Below, in pieces: positions 1-47,169 of a stretch of DNA of 64,000 nt. Source of the DNA: Picochlorum sp. SENEW3 (lineage: Eukaryota). Location: positions 434,001 to 498,000 of the forward strand of contig CP120457.1 in the NCBI GenBank assembly GCA_034226945.1, given 5' to 3'. The stretch's first letter is position 1, and the number at the start of each line of letters is the position of its first letter. The notes below the pieces were generated by a model that saw only the letters and a program-made list of their open reading frames with translations, had not been told where the DNA came from and did not search any database. Made by a program: the position numbers and the translations under genes.

Positions 1-943
1 ATGTGAGCCACATGCACAGTGAGGGGAGGAGAGATGGGTGACCTTGGGATCTCAATACATCCACCATGGCCGAGAGTTTCACTCAAATCGTATACGTACT
101 TTATTCATTTCATCATATTCTATGCATCGTTGTATCGTTGGTGGTTCAGGCGTGTGCGGCGAGACAGGCACTCACAAATGATGCCGGTCTGTCTGCCCCC
201 ACATGCTCCACTGCAGCATGATGTGCATTGTGTGTGTTGCGCGGAGAGTTTCCTTTTTAATTGTATTCTCAGATTTACTACTATACCATGACATGATATG
301 TAACGTCAGTATCCATATAGAATTGCCAAGGAGTACGAGTACAAGGAGGCCCTTTGTCGTAGAGATGCATGATGGTAATCTTGTGGCCACGGCAAGCACG
401 TGATGTTAATTCAGGAGGGCGTGGCCTGTTCCGTCCGGTCAACGTGCCGTCTTGAAAGGTTCAAGAAATTCCGGCGCTACCCTATCGCTCGATCCTCCTA
501 CAACATGAACTCTGTTCGCAACGGGATGGCATTCGTTAAAAAAGGTCCAAATATCAAGTTAATAGGAACTGTGGCTCGCAAGCAAGCTACCGTTGCAGAC
601 AAGAGTTGCTGACGGGTTGTACGACACAGATTGTGAGTCCCGAGTCTCGCGAGTTGTGCGTACTGAATACAGCGGGGTTTAGTTTTTTCGAGTGTAATAA
701 GCAGAGTAAGTATAGTTATGTGTGTGACGCGTGCGTTTTGTTGTGGGCCAGGCGTTACCTGGCCTTCCCCCTCTCGCCCGGATATGGACGAGGTTAAAGG
801 TCCTCCTGACACGGCAACTGGATTCATTTTGGTACCAGAGTTGTCGTAGGGCGCGTATTGTATGTATGCATCCTCTGACCAATATTGTATGTTTACATGC
901 AGAAGAGAACGTACAAAGTTGAAACGTGATACAGAGAAGAAGA

Positions 944-2008
944 ATGACCTCTCCAGACATGATGCACATGAAGCACGAGGAGGCATACCTCGTTGATCCT
1001 ACTCCTCCTTCCTCTGATGCTGCGGTTGTACGCGCTGATGATCGCAGAGAGGATGAAAACGTGGACAGCGAAGATGACACTACAGAAAGGGATAGCGAGG
1101 ATAACAATATGCAAAAGGATAGTAAGGATCCTGCACCTGTTGATGGTGTATCAGGCACCATTATACTACCAATGCAGGGGTCTGAGTTTCGTAGGAATGA
1201 CAAAGGAGACGTGCTATGCCATGTAGAGGGTTGTGAAACAGTCATGTCTGACGAGACGGCGTATTTCAGACGGTACAAAATCTGCCGAAAGCATCTCAAG
1301 TCAAACTATTTGATTGTGGCTGGAATACAGCAGCGCTTTTGCCAGCAATGTGGCAAATTTCATGAAGTGGAAAAGTTTGATGGGACAAAGAGAAACTGCA
1401 GAGCGACGTTGGTGAGGCATAACAGACGGAGAAAAAAGACGAGCAGAGCAAAGAGGAAGAAATCTGCGAGTGAGGATGAGGACTCTGGCACGAAACAGCC
1501 AAACGTAACATGGGAGCATCCTGGTATGGGTGCCATGCTCAATTCCTCTCCTGTGAATGTGGATATCCTGAAAGCCTATTATGGTGTGCCCAATCCGAAC
1601 GATGCCTTCCCACCAGAACTCGTGAACACGATTGCTGAATTGGAGCGATTGATTGGGCGAGAGGTGATTCATCACTGTTTGCAGTCATCACAGCCACCTC
1701 AAATGTGGCAACAGAATGGATATGCCACCAATAATATTTTCCAAGGGAACGGTATGCATAGGTATTCACCTGCGCCAGTGCATCAGTCTCCGCCCATGAT
1801 GAATGTCTTCCAACAGTATGGAATACCAAGGTCAGCCCCTCAGCACCCATATACATCTGGAGGAATGCCCATGCCCCCACCATCCGCGAGAAAACAAGTG
1901 CCCAAGGGAGCTTCTGATTCGATGATGGACCAAACCGCGAGTGATATTCTGATGCGGATGAAGAATTCTATGCCCCCAAAGTCTCAGTACATGAGAATGC
2001 CCATGTAA
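944..2008 (+). CDS. SBP (SQUAMOSA promoter-binding) domain transcription factor
   Basis: SBP signature CHVEGC...YFRRYKICRKH...QRFCQQCGKFH...FDGTKRNCR...HNRRRKK. First ATG at 944. TGTAA overlaps the stop. Confidence 0.93.
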   Translation: MTSPDMMHMKHEEAYLVDPTPPSSDAAVVRADDRREDENVDSEDDTTERDSEDNNMQKDSKDPAPVDGVSGTIILPMQGSEFRRNDKGDVLCHVEGCETVMSDETAYFRRYKICRKHLKSNYLIVAGIQQRFCQQCGKFHEVEKFDGTKRNCRATLVRHNRRRKKTSRAKRKKSASEDEDSGTKQPNVTWEHPGMGAMLNSSPVNVDILKAYYGVPNPNDAFPPELVNTIAELERLIGREVIHHCLQSSQPPQMWQQNGYATNNIFQGNGMHRYSPAPVHQSPPMMNVFQQYGIPRSAPQHPYTSGGMPMPPPSARKQVPKGASDSMMDQTASDILMRMKNSMPPKSQYMRMPM

Positions 2009-2091
2009 TCTGTCGCCCATCTTCCTTCCTTGTCTTACTTTCGCATTTATATTGATATATATGAACAGTATTTGTAAATAGTCGAGCACAT

Positions 2092-2842
2092 ATGGCGACG
2101 AAGAGGTACGAGGGGGTTATTCTGTAATGTCAAACGTCCATTGACACCAATTCACAGTCATCGCCGATGCTGCAGTATATTGACAAGACGTAATGTAGAA
2201 TTTGCCTTTCATGTTGCCGCATTAGTTTTATATTCACGTGTATGGCATTGGCATACCACACCAGCTGCAATTGTTCTCCCTGGTGCAACAGGTTTTGGCT
2301 GGTTTTTTAGATATTTAACCTTCTGGTCCTACACATTGCAATTGATACAGTTTTTACTGTCTGTATTATGCCGTATTCTTCCATCTTCAAAGGCACGATA
2401 TGCCACAGCGATTGCTGCTGATAGACTTGCGTGTGCAGTCTTTGGACTGGCCAACACCATATCAGCCATGTTTTACGCAATAGAGTATACAGGGAAAGGG
2501 CTACTGGATGCTGATCACGAAGGCAAGCCATGGTGGTTGGCAGAGACGGTGCATTTGTTGAACAGTATCATTGCTTGGGTGGATCTCTTTCTTGTTGAAG
2601 AGAGGACTTTTCATGGAAACTCGAGGCACCTGGTTGTCTTCTTGGTGATATCATACTGCAGTTGGGCACTCGTGGTCAAGCATATCTATGGAAAGTTTCC
2701 GTATCCTATATTGAACAAGTTACCATTCCCGTGGGGTTTTATTGCGTTTGTTCTGACAGGAACAGCAATTTTATTAGCAATTTTTGAGATGGGCAAGTTT
2801 GTCAAGCGCAAATGCTCAAAAACCAAAGAAAAGACGCAGTAA
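2092..2842 (+). CDS. FAR-17a/AIG1-like multi-pass membrane protein
   Basis: FRYLTFW, H..NS and FPYP motifs plus about 6 hydrophobic helices. Exon 1 is 2092-2105, and a GT-AG intron at 2106-2157 joins it in frame. Confidence 0.8.
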
Positions 2843-2882
2843 TACAACAATTTTCATCGTGTACTATATGCAATAATGATTA

Positions 2883-3815
2883 TTATTCAAGTTCACCACG
2901 AATAGTATTGCACTGCAATCTGCCCATGGGTTCTCTGAGGCAGTTGTCAATGGCTGCCACAGCATTCACAATTGCTACATCTTCTCCATTATCTGTCCAA
3001 TAAAACTTGTTTCCGAAACGTCCCGAGAGCTTACTCCAAAAGGACTGCATGAATATGTATATACATGTGAGAGATGGATGGATGATACTATAACACAGGG
3101 CAGACATACCCGTGGGACACGGAAATCAACATTTGTTCCCACATTAAAGTTGAGAATATTCCCAGTATTCGGATCCGCACTGCATTCGCATCACACTTTT
3201 TTATCACAAAAAGGAAAAAACATCACTTCTCACTTCTCACGACACAAACACACGTACACAAACACAACAGTATCATCATCCACACCCCAGTACTCTTTGA
3301 TGGCAAGACCTGGCGTGTCTGGATAATTCTGTGCAAGGACTCGAAGCTTCACCCCCGTATCCTTTTCCAGATTCTCTACTCGTGTCTTAATACGGGCTTC
3401 TTCTCCCTCCGTCAGGAAACCAGCAACATCAATCACGGGAGTCACAGGACCAGGTGGCAGCAACTCTGGCTTATTCACCCCTTCCATCCGAGCATGCGAC
3501 ACACCTGCATTGTGTGTGATGACATTACACAGCATCGATCAATGCAGTCATGAACGGTGAAGAAAAGAAAAACAAACCTCCAGACAAAAGCAAGACCCCA
3601 ACTAAAGACACATGTCCAACAGCTGCCCCAATCTTTCTCGCCAATACTCCTCCATCAACCATCAATGCAGTGGCCTTTCTCGGTTCAGCATGTACCACTT
3701 GAGATGCTCTTGGAGACCGTTCAATGTGCAATGGCAGTACTTTCGTAAAACCATTGGCTCGGAGACCACCAACATCCTGTCGATGACACTTCATCACACG
3801 AGCATTCCCCAACAT
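2883..3815 (-). CDS. TPM-domain thylakoid lumenal ~15 kDa protein (multi-exon)
   Basis: ARMEGVNKPELLP...VIDVAGFL...LRVLAQNYPDTPGLAIKEYW...FWSKLSGRFGNKFYW...AIDNCLREP. Transit-peptide-like first exon. Confidence 0.85.
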
Positions 3816-41712: not shown

Positions 41713-42089
41713 TTATGAGCAAGCAACACCACCAACCCTGTCCCTTGGAATCAGTCTCAGTTCAGACCCATGCTTCAAAAACACATTCCCCGCAGTCTGC
41801 TGAGGGTTGATACCCACCCCATCATTTGTAATAATGGCACTCGTCTGAGATGGTACTTTGAACTCTTCTGCAGCGAATTTAAGCACAGCAGTAAAAGGTG
41901 CTTCCTCTGGGACACTAAAAACTCTAAAAGGCAACTTTGGATCAGACGTCAGGACCACCTTGAACGTTACTTTACTCCCTCCTCCTTGAGCCCTACAACA
42001 GAACATAAAAGAACATGTTAGAATGCATTCCATCTCAAAGTCAGCTCGGGAAATTGTCGATCACTCGAAGAATCGTTGCCAACGTACAT
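41713..42089 (-). CDS. UFM1: Ubiquitin-fold modifier 1
   Basis: [16 protein letters not shown]...[16 protein letters not shown]...[13 protein letters not shown]. The ATG is split by intron 42087-41993. Confidence 0.95.
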
Positions 42090-42318
42090 AATTATTATCT
42101 CTCCTAAGCAACGAATATGCTCTTTTCGGCAATTATTCAATTAAAATAGTATTGTATCAACAAGAACACTGGATTTCCAATGGACATATGAGCCAAGAAT
42201 CGTCTGCTCTTGGAAGGAGCGTATCCGTAAATAGAACATTAAATCATCCTTCATGTGATTCGAATTCTCCCCCTCCACCCTGACCAATCAAAGCAGATCA
42301 TCAATAAATGTAAATACT

Positions 42319-45300
42319 ATGGGTAATAGTCAGAGTAGGAACAAGAACGGGGCCACTCTGAGCAGTGGGGTGTTGGTGGACAATGGGTCCCTCGTCTCGT
42401 TGATACGAGGTGGAGGTGGTGGGAAGATTACCCGATCTTCATTGCATCAGATGAGTATTGAATTTTCCAATGTGCTTCGAGGGAATGGGATCAATCCTGG
42501 GGATGTGGTGACTGTGGTTGATTCTAACACGATCGACTTTGTGGTGGCCTTTTTGGGAGTCACATATGCTCGTGCTGTTGCTGCTCCTTTGAATCAGAAT
42601 TACACTGCGGTACGGATTTTGATTCTTGATGGATTTGAAGAGTTCTCTGTGTGACGTGGAGTGATGGTTGCAGGAGGAATTCAAGTATTACATGGAGGAT
42701 GCCAAGTCAAAGTTGCTTGTTACAGGTGCACAGGGAAATGCGGCTGCAGAGAAGGCCGATGTGGTTCCCTGTATGTCAGTAAAGATCTCAATAGATGCTG
42801 AGACGTCTATGGGGAGATTGCATGTGACTGGAAAGTCAGAGGTGGACTTGAAGGTGGAGGATGTGTTTGCCAAGGATCCACCAAAGGCTGATGATGTGGC
42901 TCTCTTCTTGCATACCTCTGGGACGACATCTAGGCCTAAAGGTGTTCCATTGACTCATGGAAATTTGATGGCGTCGTTGGAGAATATTCGGGAGACGTAC
43001 GAGTTTACCACAGAGGATGTGTCTCTGCTGGTGATGCCTTTGTTCCATGTGCATGGGTTGATGGCTGGCTTGCTGTCTCCTTTGTCCGCTGGGGCATCGG
43101 TTGTCCTTCCAGAAGCTGGAAAGTTTTCTGCTGGGACGTTTTGGAAGGATGCTGTTGAGCACAAGGTGACGTTTTATACTGCTGTGCCAACAATGCATCA
43201 GATCTTGGCGTCGCGAGCAGAGCAAGATTATCCAAAAGATAATCCTCTTCCTATCCGAGTGATTCGTTCATGTTCTTCATCTCTTGCTCCAGCAACGCTG
43301 CATCAGGTGGAAAAGCTTTTTGGAGCGCCCGTGTTGGAGGCGTATGCAATGACTGAAGCATCACATCAGATGACATCAAATCCTCTTCCAAAGCATGGGG
43401 AGAGAAAACCTGGTACTGTTGGGAAGCCGCAAGGATCTGTAAAGGTTGCGATTTTGAGCGATTCGTGCAAGGTTCTTGGTGCAGGAGAGGTTGGCGAAGT
43501 GTGTATTCGAGGGCCAAATGTGACCAAGGGGTACAAGGACAATCCAAAAGCAAATAAAGAAGCGTTTGCTGGTGGATGGTTCCATACTGGTGATCAAGGA
43601 TATTTGAGTGAAGATGGTTACCTCACACTGACAGGAAGAATCAAGGAATTGATCAACAGAGGTGGTGAGAAGATTTCACCCTTAGAGGTATGTAGGTTGT
43701 ACTCTTTGGCATTAGAAATGAAAATGTCTGAGCTGGTGTTAGTATGTGTAGGTTGATGCCACTCTTCTTGCACATCCATTGGTGGGAGAAGCTGTATCTT
43801 TCGCCGCCCCGGATGAAAAGTATGGTGAGGAAGTAGCAGCGGCAGTTGTGCTCAAGACTCCAGATGGTGTCAAGGAGCTTGAATCAAAAGGCGAGGAGGA
43901 TATCATCAAATCCATCAAAGAATTTTGCGGTGGTAAATTGTCGGCGTTCAAGATTCCAAAACAGATTTTCATTACTGATACTCTACCAAAGAATGCCACC
44001 GGCAAAATCCAGAGGAGATTCATGGTGGATGCTTTCATCAACAAGAAACCTTCTGAGAAGGGTGAGTGATACGTTGTAGACTGCATAGATGTATTTCGAT
44101 AGTTGCATGTAAATGAGGACTATATAATAATCAAATACAATTTTGCTCTTCAGGTCCATCGACAGTGACCATTACTGGGTATGACCTTGCTGCCACAACC
44201 CTGCACAAGCTTGGTATCCGTTACATGTTTGGTGTTATTGGTATTCCTGTGACACAAATGGCTTCTGCGGCACAAGCAGCTGGTATTCGTTTCATTAGCT
44301 GTAGAAATGAACAAGCTGCTGGCTATGCTGCCGCTGCTGCTGGATTTTTAACCGGCAAGCCTGGGGTGTTGTTGACAGTGTCTGGCCCTGGGATGGTCCA
44401 CGGTATAGCTGGACTCTCTCACGCCAAAGTCAATAACTGGCCATTGATTTTGATCAGTGGAAGTTGCGAAACGGTACGTGTAGAGAGTTTTTAGTGCATC
44501 ATATACTTGAGAGCAGCATGTCAAACCCTTGGGTGTTTTGCAGAATGAGGTTGGCAAGGGAGCCTTCCAGGAACTGGATCAATGTGCGGCAGCCGCTGCG
44601 TATACACGGGTATCTGTGCAAGCCAAATGCCTTGAAGATATCCCGTCGTGTATCGAGTCTGCATGTAGGGCTGCAATGTCGCATGGGTATGGGGCGTCGT
44701 ATGTTGATGTTCCATCCAATGTATTCATGAGCACGCTTCAGAATTCTGACGCAAGCCAGGCGCTTTTGAGCTCTATCTCAGGCGTTGAAGCCAAGGCAAA
44801 AGTAGAAATAAAACATCATGCAGTATCAAAAATAATTCGTCTGATCGGATCATCTTCCAGGTACGTCTTACATTCTTTCCTCATACCACCATGGTGGACC
44901 ACCAATTGCAAATGATGAAACACATGTATACGTTCCATTGTCCAGGCCATTGTTGGTATTAGGAGTTGGATCAGCCATGGATCGGGCAGAAACAGTACTA
45001 CGAGACCTGGTAGATACATGGAAAGTGCCGTTTATATCTGCATCAATGGCCAGGGGCGTTGTGCCAGACAGCAGTCCATACTGTGCTAATGCTGCTCGCT
45101 CATTGGCATTGGCCAAGGCAGATACAGTCCTCGTTCTAGGCAATGGACTGAATTGGCAGTTGCACTTTGGCGAAGCTCCTAAATGGTCGAAAGATGCGAC
45201 CTTTGTGCTGATTGATGGTAAAATTTGCAGTCGAGACAAAAAGGTTGCACACATGGCAATCGAGACATCTGTGCAACAGGCTGTCAGGGATATGCTTCAT

Positions 45301-46038
45301 GCAAAAGACACAGTAGACTCGGACGCATGGGTAGCATGGAGGCAAGAAATAGAGGCAAGAGTATCATCTGCCAAGGCAAAACTTTCCATCAAGCTTGCCA
45401 AGACTATATATCCCCTCAATTATCACACTGCCCTCCGTGTTATTCGCGATGAAATTGCAGACATAAAACCAGCACCAGTCGTCATAGCAGAGGGTGCCAA
45501 CACAATGGATCAAGCAAGAATTCTTCTCGAGCCCGTGGACTCGCCACGCTGTAGATTGGATGCTGGAGCATGGGGCACGATGGGGATTGGTCTTGGGAGT
45601 GCCATTGCTGCTGCTGTTACCACAGATCGCCTTGTTGTGGCTGTAGAAGGTGACTCAGCCTTTGGATTTAGCGGCATGGAAATGGAAACTATATGCCGAT
45701 ACAAATTGCCCATCATTGTGATTGTCTTCAACAATGGTGGCATCTACGGTGGTGATAGAAGGCCTGAAGCACTGTGTCAAGCTGCAAGAGCTGGCTTGGA
45801 ACAGGCCGGCTATGCCCATGACCCAGCCCCCACATCGTTCGTCCCCCATGCTGCATATGAATCTCTATCCACTGCTTTCGGAGGACAAGGAGCACATGTT
45901 GAAACTGCAGAGCAGCTCCAAGATGTACTCCACAAGGCAATCTCGGACAGAAAACCAATGCTCATCAATGTTGCCATTGACCCCACAGCAGGCGTTGAAA
46001 GTGGAACAGTCCATGCATTCAATGCACCCAAAAAATAA
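42319..46038 (+). CDS. Predicted bifunctional oxalate-CoA ligase / oxalyl-CoA decarboxylase (HACL1-type) fusion, 1114 aa
   Basis: Exons 42319-42609, 42674-43687, 43752-44061, 44154-44473, 44544-44860, 44946-46038. Ligase motifs: LHTSGTTSRPKGV, RSCSSSL, EAYAMTEASHQM. TPP-enzyme motifs: MFGVIGIPV, RNEQAAGYAA, EGANTMD, RLDAGAWGTMG, EGDSAFGFSGME. Confidence 0.8.
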
Positions 46039-46107
46039 TTTCAATCTATTACACTAGTAATATTTACAGCAATGGTCATGGTCAAATGTACTTTTTTAAA
46101 GTTCTCT

Positions 46108-47169
46108 TTATGTAGTATTGCAAGCCGCAGCATTCGACATGATGGCAGAATTTGCACGAGCGCGAAGCACATCAAGCTTCTCTCCATTCCATGATACTTC
46201 CTTCCAACCATCACACGATTGCCTCGACGGATTCCTCTCTCGTAAAACAACAAGTGCAAACTTTGACACAGCTCTGTAACGAGAGCCGGCGTAATTGATT
46301 GCTCCATCCTCACCAACAGATGCCCTCACCTCTGCATGCCCAACAGAGAACTTGTGCTCCCCAGGCTTCATAAAACCAGCACTAACAAGCTCACAAAAAC
46401 TAGGCCTTCCTTTAGATTCATGACGAGCGCTTGTAGCTCGAATCGCTTTCGCTCCTCTCGTTTTCATTGCGAAGCGAGATCCTGTGCCTCTATTGCTCAA
46501 CTCTTTTCGCTCAGGACCCTTCTTCTTCAATATCTTGGTACTTTTGCCCACGGTAGAACTAGAAATTTGATCGCTTGAAGCACTTTTTGCAGCCGGAGAT
46601 TTCGACGAAGACAGTGAGGACGATGGTAGCCGCACCACACCATCAGCCAGCCGCTTGGGGACACTTCTATTCCTCTTGCTTGGAGGGCGCCGTGCAATTG
46701 GCGCCCCTGTTCCCTGTACCGGCACAGCCTTCACTCCATCTCTATCCTCATACCGCGTAAATGAAGAATCCCGAGGGCTGTCATCCGACTGCTCGTCCAC
46801 ACCACTCCGTGCATCATGCAAAGAAGACCCATCCAGCAGTGGTTGTTCCTGTTGCTGTGGAAATTGGATGAGAGGAGGAGCATCGTAGGGCTGCACCTTC
46901 TGACCATCCACCAGTTCACCCGCGTATGGATCCATACCATCTCCCTCTATACATGTTCCACTGGTATCATGGAACAGATCCACCCCAAAACCCAAGTGGG
47001 CACCCTCTTGGTCATCATTCCAACCAATATGCGTCCCCATAGACTCAAACATCAAAGGGTCCGACTCGAACAATTTCTGCCCAAAGCAATCCTCTGTTCC
47101 ATGAGCATTCACAGTATCGACAGTCGACCACCCATCCACATCAGCATCGAGACCCATAGGCATGACCAT
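46108..47169 (-). CDS. RAMA-domain (MPND-like) putative DNA-binding protein
   Basis: LVSAGFMKPG...A.V.EDGAI.Y.G..Y...SKFA...NP...CDGW..V.WNG..L..LR after a disordered acidic/basic region. Confidence 0.7.
   Translation of the reverse strand: MVMPMGLDADVDGWSTVDTVNAHGTEDCFGQKLFESDPLMFESMGTHIGWNDDQEGAHLGFGVDLFHDTSGTCIEGDGMDPYAGELVDGQKVQPYDAPPLIQFPQQQEQPLLDGSSLHDARSGVDEQSDDSPRDSSFTRYEDRDGVKAVPVQGTGAPIARRPPSKRNRSVPKRLADGVVRLPSSSLSSSKSPAAKSASSDQISSSTVGKSTKILKKKGPERKELSNRGTGSRFAMKTRGAKAIRATSARHESKGRPSFCELVSAGFMKPGEHKFSVGHAEVRASVGEDGAINYAGSRYRAVSKFALVVLRERNPSRQSCDGWKEVSWNGEKLDVLRARANSAIMSNAAACNTT

Follow-up and report, generated by a model that had tools for sequence, protein, structure and literature searches.

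A predicted two-enzyme gene in Picochlorum sp. SENEW3

The stretch of DNA analysed here (the window) comprises 64,000 nucleotides of Picochlorum sp. SENEW3 (GenBank assembly GCA_034226945.1, contig CP120457.1, positions 434,001 to 498,000), and all coordinates below are positions within it. Between 42319 and 46038 on its forward strand lies what appears to be a single gene in which an oxalate-CoA ligase is followed by a thiamine pyrophosphate (TPP) enzyme of the family that contains oxalyl-CoA decarboxylase (OXC) and 2-hydroxyacyl-CoA lyase (HACL). We read the region directly in three-frame translation and joined the proposed exons by their coordinates in a script. The join of six exons gives 3345 nt, or 1114 codons, and contains no internal stops. 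The exons and introns are as follows, with Pfam E-values in brackets; X2 is a set of contigs described further on.

42319..42609, forward strand: exon 1, running from the start ATG into the AMP-binding domain (PF00501, 4.9e-12)
42610..42673, forward strand: intron 1, 64 nt, GT..AG, skipped in an X2 contig of depth 165.2
42674..43687, forward strand: exon 2, core of the predicted oxalate-CoA ligase, with seven of the eight oxalate-pocket residues (PF00501, 1.6e-62)
43688..43751, forward strand: intron 2, 64 nt, GT..AG, skipped in an X2 contig of depth 515.8
43752..44061, forward strand: exon 3, encoding the ligase's C-terminal subdomain and its catalytic lysine (PF13193, AMP-binding_C, 6.1e-15), ending in phase 1
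44062..44153, forward strand: intron 3, the junction intron, 92 nt, phase 1, GTGAGT..CAG, G+C fraction 0.33
44154..44473, forward strand: exon 4, short linker and TPP_enzyme_N (the PYR domain), including the first helix, which precedes the in-frame ATG at 44225
44474..44543, forward strand: intron 4, 70 nt, GT..AG, skipped in X2 contig 12
44544..44860, forward strand: exon 5, last part of the PYR domain, carrying Phe-Gln where Oxalobacter formigenes OXC has Tyr120-Glu121
44861..44945, forward strand: intron 5, 85 nt, GT..AG, skipped in X2 contig 12
44946..46038, forward strand: exon 6, TPP_enzyme_M and TPP_enzyme_C, equivalents of Tyr483 and Ser553, OXC-type C-terminal lid, stop TAA at 46036-46038

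Pfam thus places AMP-binding and AMP-binding_C in exons 1 to 3 and the three TPP enzyme domains in exons 4 and 6; exon 5, searched alone against Pfam, gave no match. The donor of intron 3 reads AAG G/GTGAGT, with GT at 44062-44063, and its acceptor AG lies at 44152-44153, so that G 44061 and GT 44154-44155 form a glycine codon in frame with the TPP enzyme. If the intron is retained, the ligase frame runs into TGA at 44067-44069, two codons beyond the donor, and because of this a ligase-only reading is also open. The intron further contains TGTAA at 44108-44112 and a TATATAA-like run at about 44122-44128. In the frame of the TPP enzyme, the stop at 44114-44116 is followed by no ATG before the one at 44225, which falls within the conserved first strand. 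Judged from its reading frame, the TPP half thus cannot start on its own. The initial annotation had described the same six exons, with their total of 3345 nt and 1114 residues, a donor at 44062, an acceptor ending at 44153, an in-frame join of G and GT, a TPP half without an in-frame ATG of its own and an ATG at 44113 that stops after four codons. The coordinate join reproduces the exon structure, and each of the other features is present in the sequence.

The N-terminal half resembles AAE3-type oxalate-CoA ligases

The class of the ligase was judged by searching exon 2 against solved structures and by counting the pocket positions by hand in HMMER alignments to 5ie0. The best matches are all oxalyl-CoA synthetases (6qjz, 4.4e-116; 5ie0, 7.6e-115; 8aff, 1.3e-90), a group made up of the solved enzymes of grass pea, Arabidopsis and yeast, and the next class, feruloyl- and fatty acyl-CoA synthetases, reaches only 4e-38. 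The oxalate pocket of Arabidopsis AAE3 is formed, according to PMC8905533, by Val215, His216, Cys288, Ser289, Ala313, Met314, His319 and Lys500. All eight residues are identical in the window ligase. The ligase half as a whole aligns along the full length of the solved AAE3 chain. Exon 3 aligns to residues 426-513 of the 514 in 5ie0, and the solved AAE3 chain ends where the window linker begins, a few residues before the end of exon 3. The N-terminal half is, by predicted activity, an oxalate-CoA ligase of the AAE3/Pcs60 type. NCBIfam, which was scored on close relatives and on the window exon by exon, holds no oxalate-CoA ligase model that these proteins pass.

When exon 2 was searched against the whole protein library, the best 150 matches were dominated by multi-module proteins resembling nonribosomal peptide synthetases, 11 of which were checked with Pfam; this search yielded no usable tally of fused forms. 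Many of the best matches to the adenylation core (P0400-P0436, about 860-1070 aa) consist of an adenylation domain and a carrier domain followed by a thioesterase, condensation or reductase domain. The oxalate-ligase core thus has close kin among enzymes that load carrier proteins.

The C-terminal half groups with the plant-type OXC/HACL enzymes

Among solved structures, the best matches to exon 6 are the OXCs of Escherichia coli, Methylorubrum extorquens and O. formigenes (2q27, 4.6e-78). The alignment of exon 6 to these enzymes extends through the C-terminal lid, whereas solved HACL/S chains score lower and their alignments stop before it. The thiamine diphosphate (ThDP)-binding GDS..NN motif accompanies the three TPP enzyme domains, and an alignment to 2c31 shows that the equivalents of Tyr483 and Ser553 are kept; in OXC these two residues hold the proton-relay water (PMC7154664).

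We compared motifs in a table of 44 rows. The three motifs of the window's TPP half are common to every green-lineage row, the unfused enzymes from Selaginella, a fern and a grass among them, and in the rows of animal HACL1 two of these motifs are different. The window carries FQELDQ and AGVESG, and does not match the animal type, which combines FQE(F/Y)PQ with a lid that lacks AGxESG. A quick IQ-TREE phylogeny of 42 rows, with support from the Shimodaira-Hasegawa-like approximate likelihood ratio test only and with P0069 and P0037 removed for their aberrant tails, points the same way. The Archaeplastida rows and Chromera form one branch (support 95), and the animal, fungal and HACL-like bacterial rows form the other. 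Within the first branch, the window's TPP half groups with three metagenome open reading frames (ORFs) and then with Chlorella and Micractinium, and the unfused tracheophyte rows are nested among fused streptophyte rows.

PMC8004701 reports that the Arabidopsis OXC (AtOXC), a cytosolic protein co-expressed with AAE3, turns oxalyl-CoA into formyl-CoA in vitro. Its group membership was judged through its vascular-plant orthologues, the Arabidopsis sequence itself lying outside the aligned set. By motifs and clade, the C-terminal half of the window protein is assigned to the plant-type OXC/HACL group, that of AtOXC and maize OCD1, and we prefer OXC over HACL for it because its motifs are shared with the vascular-plant rows. 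The label of oxalyl-CoA decarboxylase given at first annotation therefore stands by orthology to plant OXC, but not by the bacterial Tyr-Glu signature, which is absent and replaced by Phe-Gln, as it is in the 34 other rows from the green lineage, a red alga and Chromera.

The same architecture is widespread

To survey the fusion we used exon 6 as a query and considered only proteins longer than the free-standing enzyme, 120 of which were listed. Both PF00501 and TPP domains occur in 41 of them, and three more combine PF13193 with TPP domains. By record name, the chlorophytes among them include Botryococcus, Micractinium, Chlorella, Trebouxia, Coccomyxa, Symbiochloris, Chromochloris, two Chlamydomonas species, Polytomella, Ostreobium, Chloropicon and Auxenochlorella. 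Fused streptophyte algae include several Closterium by record name, and others known by JGI or eukprot codes that we take to stand for Mesotaenium, Chlorokybus and Spirogloea. Three bryophyte gene models are fused as well (Marchantia paleacea, Calypogeia fissa and Sphagnum fallax), and outside the green lineage the architecture occurs in the red alga Galdieria and the alveolate Chromera. The order of ligase followed by TPP enzyme was confirmed by Pfam in three fused relatives. Some of the fused proteins come from transcript assemblies by record name; P0033 is a Trinity product, and P0028 is a UniRef entry from Polytomella.

Related enzyme pairs have been joined in other ways. A transcript of Gloeochaete wittrockiana (P0224, 1127 aa) has the reverse order, with the TPP enzyme first and an AAE3-type ligase last, and looks like an independent glaucophyte fusion of the same pair. 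The metagenome proteins P0068 and P0102 combine a family III CoA-transferase resembling Frc with a classical OXC, in both orders. Other partners also occur in the family: a 920-aa Trinity transcript protein (P0042) carries a formyltransferase (PF00551, PF02911) ahead of a plant-type OXC, and in Aspergillus and related fungi (P0073-P0098, about 1230-1260 aa) a long TPR-repeat region is joined to a HACL-family enzyme, which is a different architecture.

The fusion has clear precedents, since the architecture is plainly visible in public protein sets from dozens of species, and the window accordingly adds one more member to it. The initial annotation had called for a search of domain architectures and had described the two enzymes as separate in plants. 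Once run, the search yielded fusions across chlorophytes, streptophyte algae, bryophytes, Galdieria and Chromera; separate enzymes are what we see for the vascular plants in the set, but not for the three bryophytes. The further proposal that the fusion speaks for an oxalate role of the HACL-like half is supported, and gains from the reverse-order glaucophyte and bacterial Frc-OXC fusions. Its wide spread suggests that the fusion is old, and the nesting of unfused vascular-plant enzymes among fused forms points to a later split toward vascular plants. In the full-text literature, with subscription journals and supplements outside our scope, we found no paper that describes the fusion, the word there referring to tagged proteins, and none that states an old fusion followed by a vascular-plant split. 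The accessible part of PMC9090294 places Chlamydomonas and Physcomitrium OXC in a tree and that of PMC5755239 lists the Chromera protein as an alpha-oxidation enzyme; neither part mentions a fusion.

The join is conserved in close relatives

Two metagenome loci carry close relatives with a ligase directly upstream on the same strand. In these loci, L001, which is very close to the window, and L002, which is more distant (65-77% amino-acid identity), the donor AAG G/GTGAGT, the TGA immediately after it and a CAG acceptor that restores the frame are all shared. The intron differs in length, with 92 nt in the window against 81 nt in L001 and 215 nt in L002, and its phase 1 is kept. Neither locus has an in-frame ATG ahead of the conserved TPP start, and L002 also lacks GTG and TTG there. 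The spliced translation of L002 runs without interruption from the ligase through a linker rich in Ala, Ser, Pro and Thr into the TPP enzyme. In this gene (44-3648) each half is a single exon, and the 215-nt junction intron is the only intron seen. The N-terminal region of L002 contains a Ser-Thr repeat that derives from a run of GAGTAC-type hexamers at the contig end.

Comparison with L002 also bears on the stretch upstream of the first in-frame ATG. Of the 17 codons that precede 44225, 5 are unchanged, 5 carry silent differences only and 7 encode another residue, and for the 20 codons through the ATG region the corresponding numbers are 6, 7 and 7. By this codon pattern, the stretch upstream of 44225 behaves as coding sequence. 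The first helix, which precedes 44225, is included in every free-standing relative of the alignment.

The ORF calls P0207, P0209 and P0210, from further relatives, end like the unspliced window ligase, which fits a conserved donor at the same spot. A ligase also lies directly upstream in L006, L023, L024, L035, L036, L043 and L050. The closest named protein, P0031, a gene model from the eukprot set jgi/Picre1, which we take to be a Picochlorum, uses the same join as the window and is 96% identical over the covered part of exon 6 and 99% identical over exon 4. In P0136 the ligase, the linker and TPP_enzyme_N form one uninterrupted ORF on a 2.4-kb contig, and the window gene model is collinear with 26 fused relatives in the alignment. 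Six TPP-only ORFs from close relatives (P0126-P0131, 577-623 aa) were considered as free-standing enzymes and rejected as most likely ORF calls on genomic DNA, because their clusters sit on metagenome contigs of up to 225 kb; the ORF of P0126 reads through the apparent acceptor. The gene model is in frame, and its predicted join is conserved in relatives.

Contigs that behave as RNA do not show the join

Four runs could be aligned to the window as contigs (X1, X2, X6 and X15), none of which is recorded as RNA. X15 is near-identical DNA, X1 and X6 retain introns and behave as DNA, and X2, from a related strain that is 95-99% alike, is the only one that behaves as RNA. The evidence from X2 comes from the contigs listed, which represent 4 of 16 X2 records. 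Contigs of this kind drop minor forms, and holes in their coverage prove nothing. In X2, introns 1, 2, 4 and 5 are spliced exactly as modelled.

Intron 3 is where X2 weighs against a fused product, together with a handful of further observations. Among the X2 contigs listed, all from the related strain, the 44061/44154 joint is absent. Instead, a contig of depth 377.7 spans about 43892-44118 and thus crosses the donor into the intron, where it differs from the window at two positions; no listed X2 contig reaches into 44119-44200, and coverage resumes with a contig that begins at 44201 (depth 165.9). The unspliced ligase stop is followed 39 nt later by TGTAA. P0031, the named gene model that uses the join, counts for little because it is faulty elsewhere. 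The initial annotation had put forward RNA across the 44061/44154 junction as the check on its model, and on this point X2 goes against it: the result speaks against constitutive splicing of intron 3, or at least fails to support it. Some properties of the TPP half also pull away from oxalate, and they are taken up with the third alternative below.

Alternative readings of the locus

The pattern at intron 3 could mean that the gene has two outputs, a ligase-only mRNA made by cleavage at a poly(A) site within the intron and a fused enzyme made by splicing; this is compatible with a real fusion, and we regard it as a possibility worth keeping in view, although we do not favor it. The X2 contig through the donor ends 6 nt after TGTAA 44108-44112, and the depth of contigs rises toward about 44118 and again toward about 46208; yet RNA ends are beyond what contigs can show, and 44118 is not listed as a poly(A) loose end. 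TGTAA occurs in the junction intron of the window, of L001 (twice) and of L002 and in none of the four other introns, against a background of 0.00087 per nt, or about 0.08 expected in 92 nt and 0.19 in 215 nt. Of 29 long ORFs in the window, 10 have TGTAA in the 150 nt that follow their ends, compared with a random mean of 3.6 and a maximum of 9 in 200 trials, a rough test because some of the 29 are internal exons. TGTAA is the poly(A) signal of green algae. L001 and L002 both retain the stop that immediately follows the donor, the ORFs P0207, P0209 and P0210 of more distant relatives end in like manner, and the intron-poor L002 has kept precisely this intron, but GT-GAG-TGA may merely reflect the donor consensus. 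The depths of the ligase body (165.2) and the TPP body (165.9) are nearly equal, so that abundant extra ligase-only RNA is not suggested, with the proviso that depth per contig cannot rank parts of a gene. A more radical reading takes the locus as two tandem genes, the ligase ending at TGA 44067-44069 and the 92-nt spacer holding both its poly(A) site and a promoter for the TPP enzyme. The lack of an X2 junction contig would follow naturally, with a contig end at about 44118 and a new start at 44201 as at a 5' end; the TATATAA-like run lies about 30 nt ahead of exon 4; and spacers are short in this compact genome, with 57 and 70 nt between convergent neighbors. What makes this reading improbable is the start it would need. 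There is no in-frame AUG before 44225, and a 23-codon ORF that begins with an out-of-frame AUG at 44181 overlaps 44225. A product begun at 44225 would lose the first helix, which is kept in all relatives and evolves as coding sequence. L001 and L002 likewise lack a start, their spacers of other lengths still splice in frame, and the fusion is general in the lineage.

A third alternative accepts the fused protein and changes its chemistry, so that a ligase and a 2-hydroxyacyl-CoA lyase would serve alpha-oxidation or small 2-hydroxy acids rather than oxalate. The window has Phe-Gln where bacterial OXC has Tyr120-Glu121 (O. formigenes numbering), as does human HACL1; this is a named difference between M. 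extorquens OXC and human HACL1, whose OXC activity is very low (both from PMC7154664). Solved HACL/S chains are better matches to exon 4 than OXC chains are, and databases name the relatives 2-hydroxyacyl-CoA lyase. The OXC equivalog TIGR03254, with a cut-off of 739.4, is not reached by close relatives (P0128, 533.8; P0005, 564.9). With NF006721, whose cut-off is 557, both P0128 (568.7) and a fish HACL1 (562.5) score above the threshold, and NCBIfam therefore does not tell OXC and HACL1 apart. In addition, half of the fused relatives (18 of 36) end in a tripeptide that resembles the type 1 peroxisomal targeting signal (PTS1), judged by the PTS1 consensus, as peroxisomal HACL1 does. Against these points, the ligase pocket is the complete AAE3 oxalate pocket, eight residues out of eight. 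The vascular-plant orthologues that combine Phe-Gln with the same lid include the AtOXC group, which is active on oxalyl-CoA. The lid and the FPQ motif of animal HACL1 are absent from the window. We consider a role away from oxalate quite unlikely.

A probable bifunctional oxalate-to-formyl-CoA enzyme

The reading that we prefer is one six-exon gene encoding a bifunctional enzyme of 1114 residues, which is quite probably a real fusion and an ordinary member of an existing architecture. Its first approximately 538 residues would act as a ligase of the AAE3/Pcs60 type, adenylating oxalate and then transferring it to CoA, so that oxalate, ATP and CoA yield oxalyl-CoA. A linker of about 12 residues, which contains the phase-1 intron, would join this half to the last approximately 565 residues, a ThDP enzyme of the plant OXC/HACL group predicted to convert oxalyl-CoA to formyl-CoA and CO2. 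Formyl-CoA then goes to formate in the established plant pathway. Splicing of intron 3 (44062-44153) would be the step that unites the halves. Both this splicing in Picochlorum and the action of the halves on oxalate and oxalyl-CoA are what we infer from sequence. The fusion would set a 1:1 ratio of the two activities and hold their sites close together, and true channelling of oxalyl-CoA from one to the other is only a possibility.

Termini, linker and genomic surroundings

The linker of the window protein is the shortest among the 27 fused rows aligned. The protein ends in Lys-Lys, without a PTS1-like tripeptide, and the streptophyte fused forms end like the cytosolic plant enzyme. Its N-terminus (42319-42340) reads Met-Gly-Asn-x-Gln-Ser, which we take to match the N-myristoylation pattern; the same start occurs in P0031 and in the more distant P0207, whose following residues differ. 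This clade is also without the PTS1-like C-terminus borne by 18 of the 36 fused relatives. That the protein is myristoylated and located outside the peroxisome is a guess from these termini.

These features can be combined with the behavior of intron 3 into a bolder proposal, which we put forward as speculation and think more doubtful than otherwise. The junction intron might be a conserved switch, and the window's clade might have lost a peroxisomal signal, gained a myristoylation-type N-terminus and moved to a cytosolic membrane surface. Splicing would then give the bifunctional oxalate-to-formyl-CoA enzyme, and cleavage at the intronic TGTAA would give a free oxalyl-CoA synthetase. If this were true, the cell could set the share of oxalyl-CoA that is destroyed at once and the share that is released.

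The neighboring genes encode a class II aminoacyl-tRNA synthetase, Ufm1, a RAMA-domain protein and a PG_binding_1 protein, and none is linked to oxalate. Between the stop of the fused gene and that of the convergent RAMA-domain gene there are 70 nt (46039-46108), and therefore the 3' untranslated regions (UTRs) of the two genes must overlap. The nearest sense-strand TGTAA past the stop of the fused gene is 237 nt away (46275), and the antisense strand has two copies, at 46049 and 46064. Ahead of the start codon (42000-42242) the contigs of related strains diverge from the window: X2 has a loose end at 42242, with 162 unlike letters before it, and X1 and X6 have loose ends at 42011. An intron in the 5' UTR may account for this, or the strains may differ in the 260-nt spacer that separates this gene from the divergent Ufm1 gene.

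Comparison with known systems

The fusion acts as a natural "Rosetta stone" that links AAE3-type ligases to the green-lineage OXC/HACL enzyme, and it therefore supports the oxalate role worked out in Arabidopsis. The database name 2-hydroxyacyl-CoA lyase is probably misleading for these algal proteins. The chemistry itself is already established, and the finding changes nothing there, although a natural single-chain enzyme for the conversion of oxalate to formyl-CoA could interest builders of one-carbon pathways.

The closest functional parallel is the Arabidopsis pair of AAE3 (5ie0, 5ie2 and 5ie3) and AtOXC (At5g17380), which carry out the same two chemistries in the same order. In Arabidopsis these are two separate, co-expressed, cytosolic proteins (PMC8004701), whereas the window has one polypeptide with its short linker. 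The unfused vascular-plant OXC group has the FQELDQ-type motif, NNGG(I/V)Y and the DPxAGxESG lid in common with the window's TPP half. Public fused proteins such as P0005 (Chlorella sorokiniana, "2-hydroxyacyl-lyase isoform A"), P0011 (Coccomyxa, "probable 2-hydroxyacyl-CoA lyase at C-terminar half") and P0026 (M. paleacea) agree with the window protein in domain order, in size (1100-1150 aa) and in the motifs of both halves. What sets the window protein apart from other fused proteins is its linker length, its lack of a PTS1-like end and a Met-Gly start shared only with its closest relatives.

Further afield, the bacterial OXCs (O. formigenes 2c31, E. coli 2q27 and M. extorquens 7ayg) resemble the window's TPP half in fold, ThDP motif, Tyr483/Ser553 and lid, but differ in having Tyr120-Glu121 in place of Phe-Gln. 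Bacteria also activate oxalate with a CoA-transferase, whereas the window is predicted to use an ATP-dependent ligase; even so, in the metagenome protein P0068 an oxalate-activating enzyme, Frc, likewise stands in front of OXC. Animal HACL1 is another member of the superfamily and carries Phe-Gln at the equivalent position, but its FQE(F/Y)PQ motif, its lid without AGxESG and its position on the other main branch of the tree (support 95) separate it from the window. The G. wittrockiana protein P0224 pairs an AAE3-type ligase with the full set of oxalate-pocket motifs and a TPP enzyme of the OXC/HACL family in one ORF, and it differs from the window in its reversed order, its SRL end and a TPP half without the plant-type motifs.

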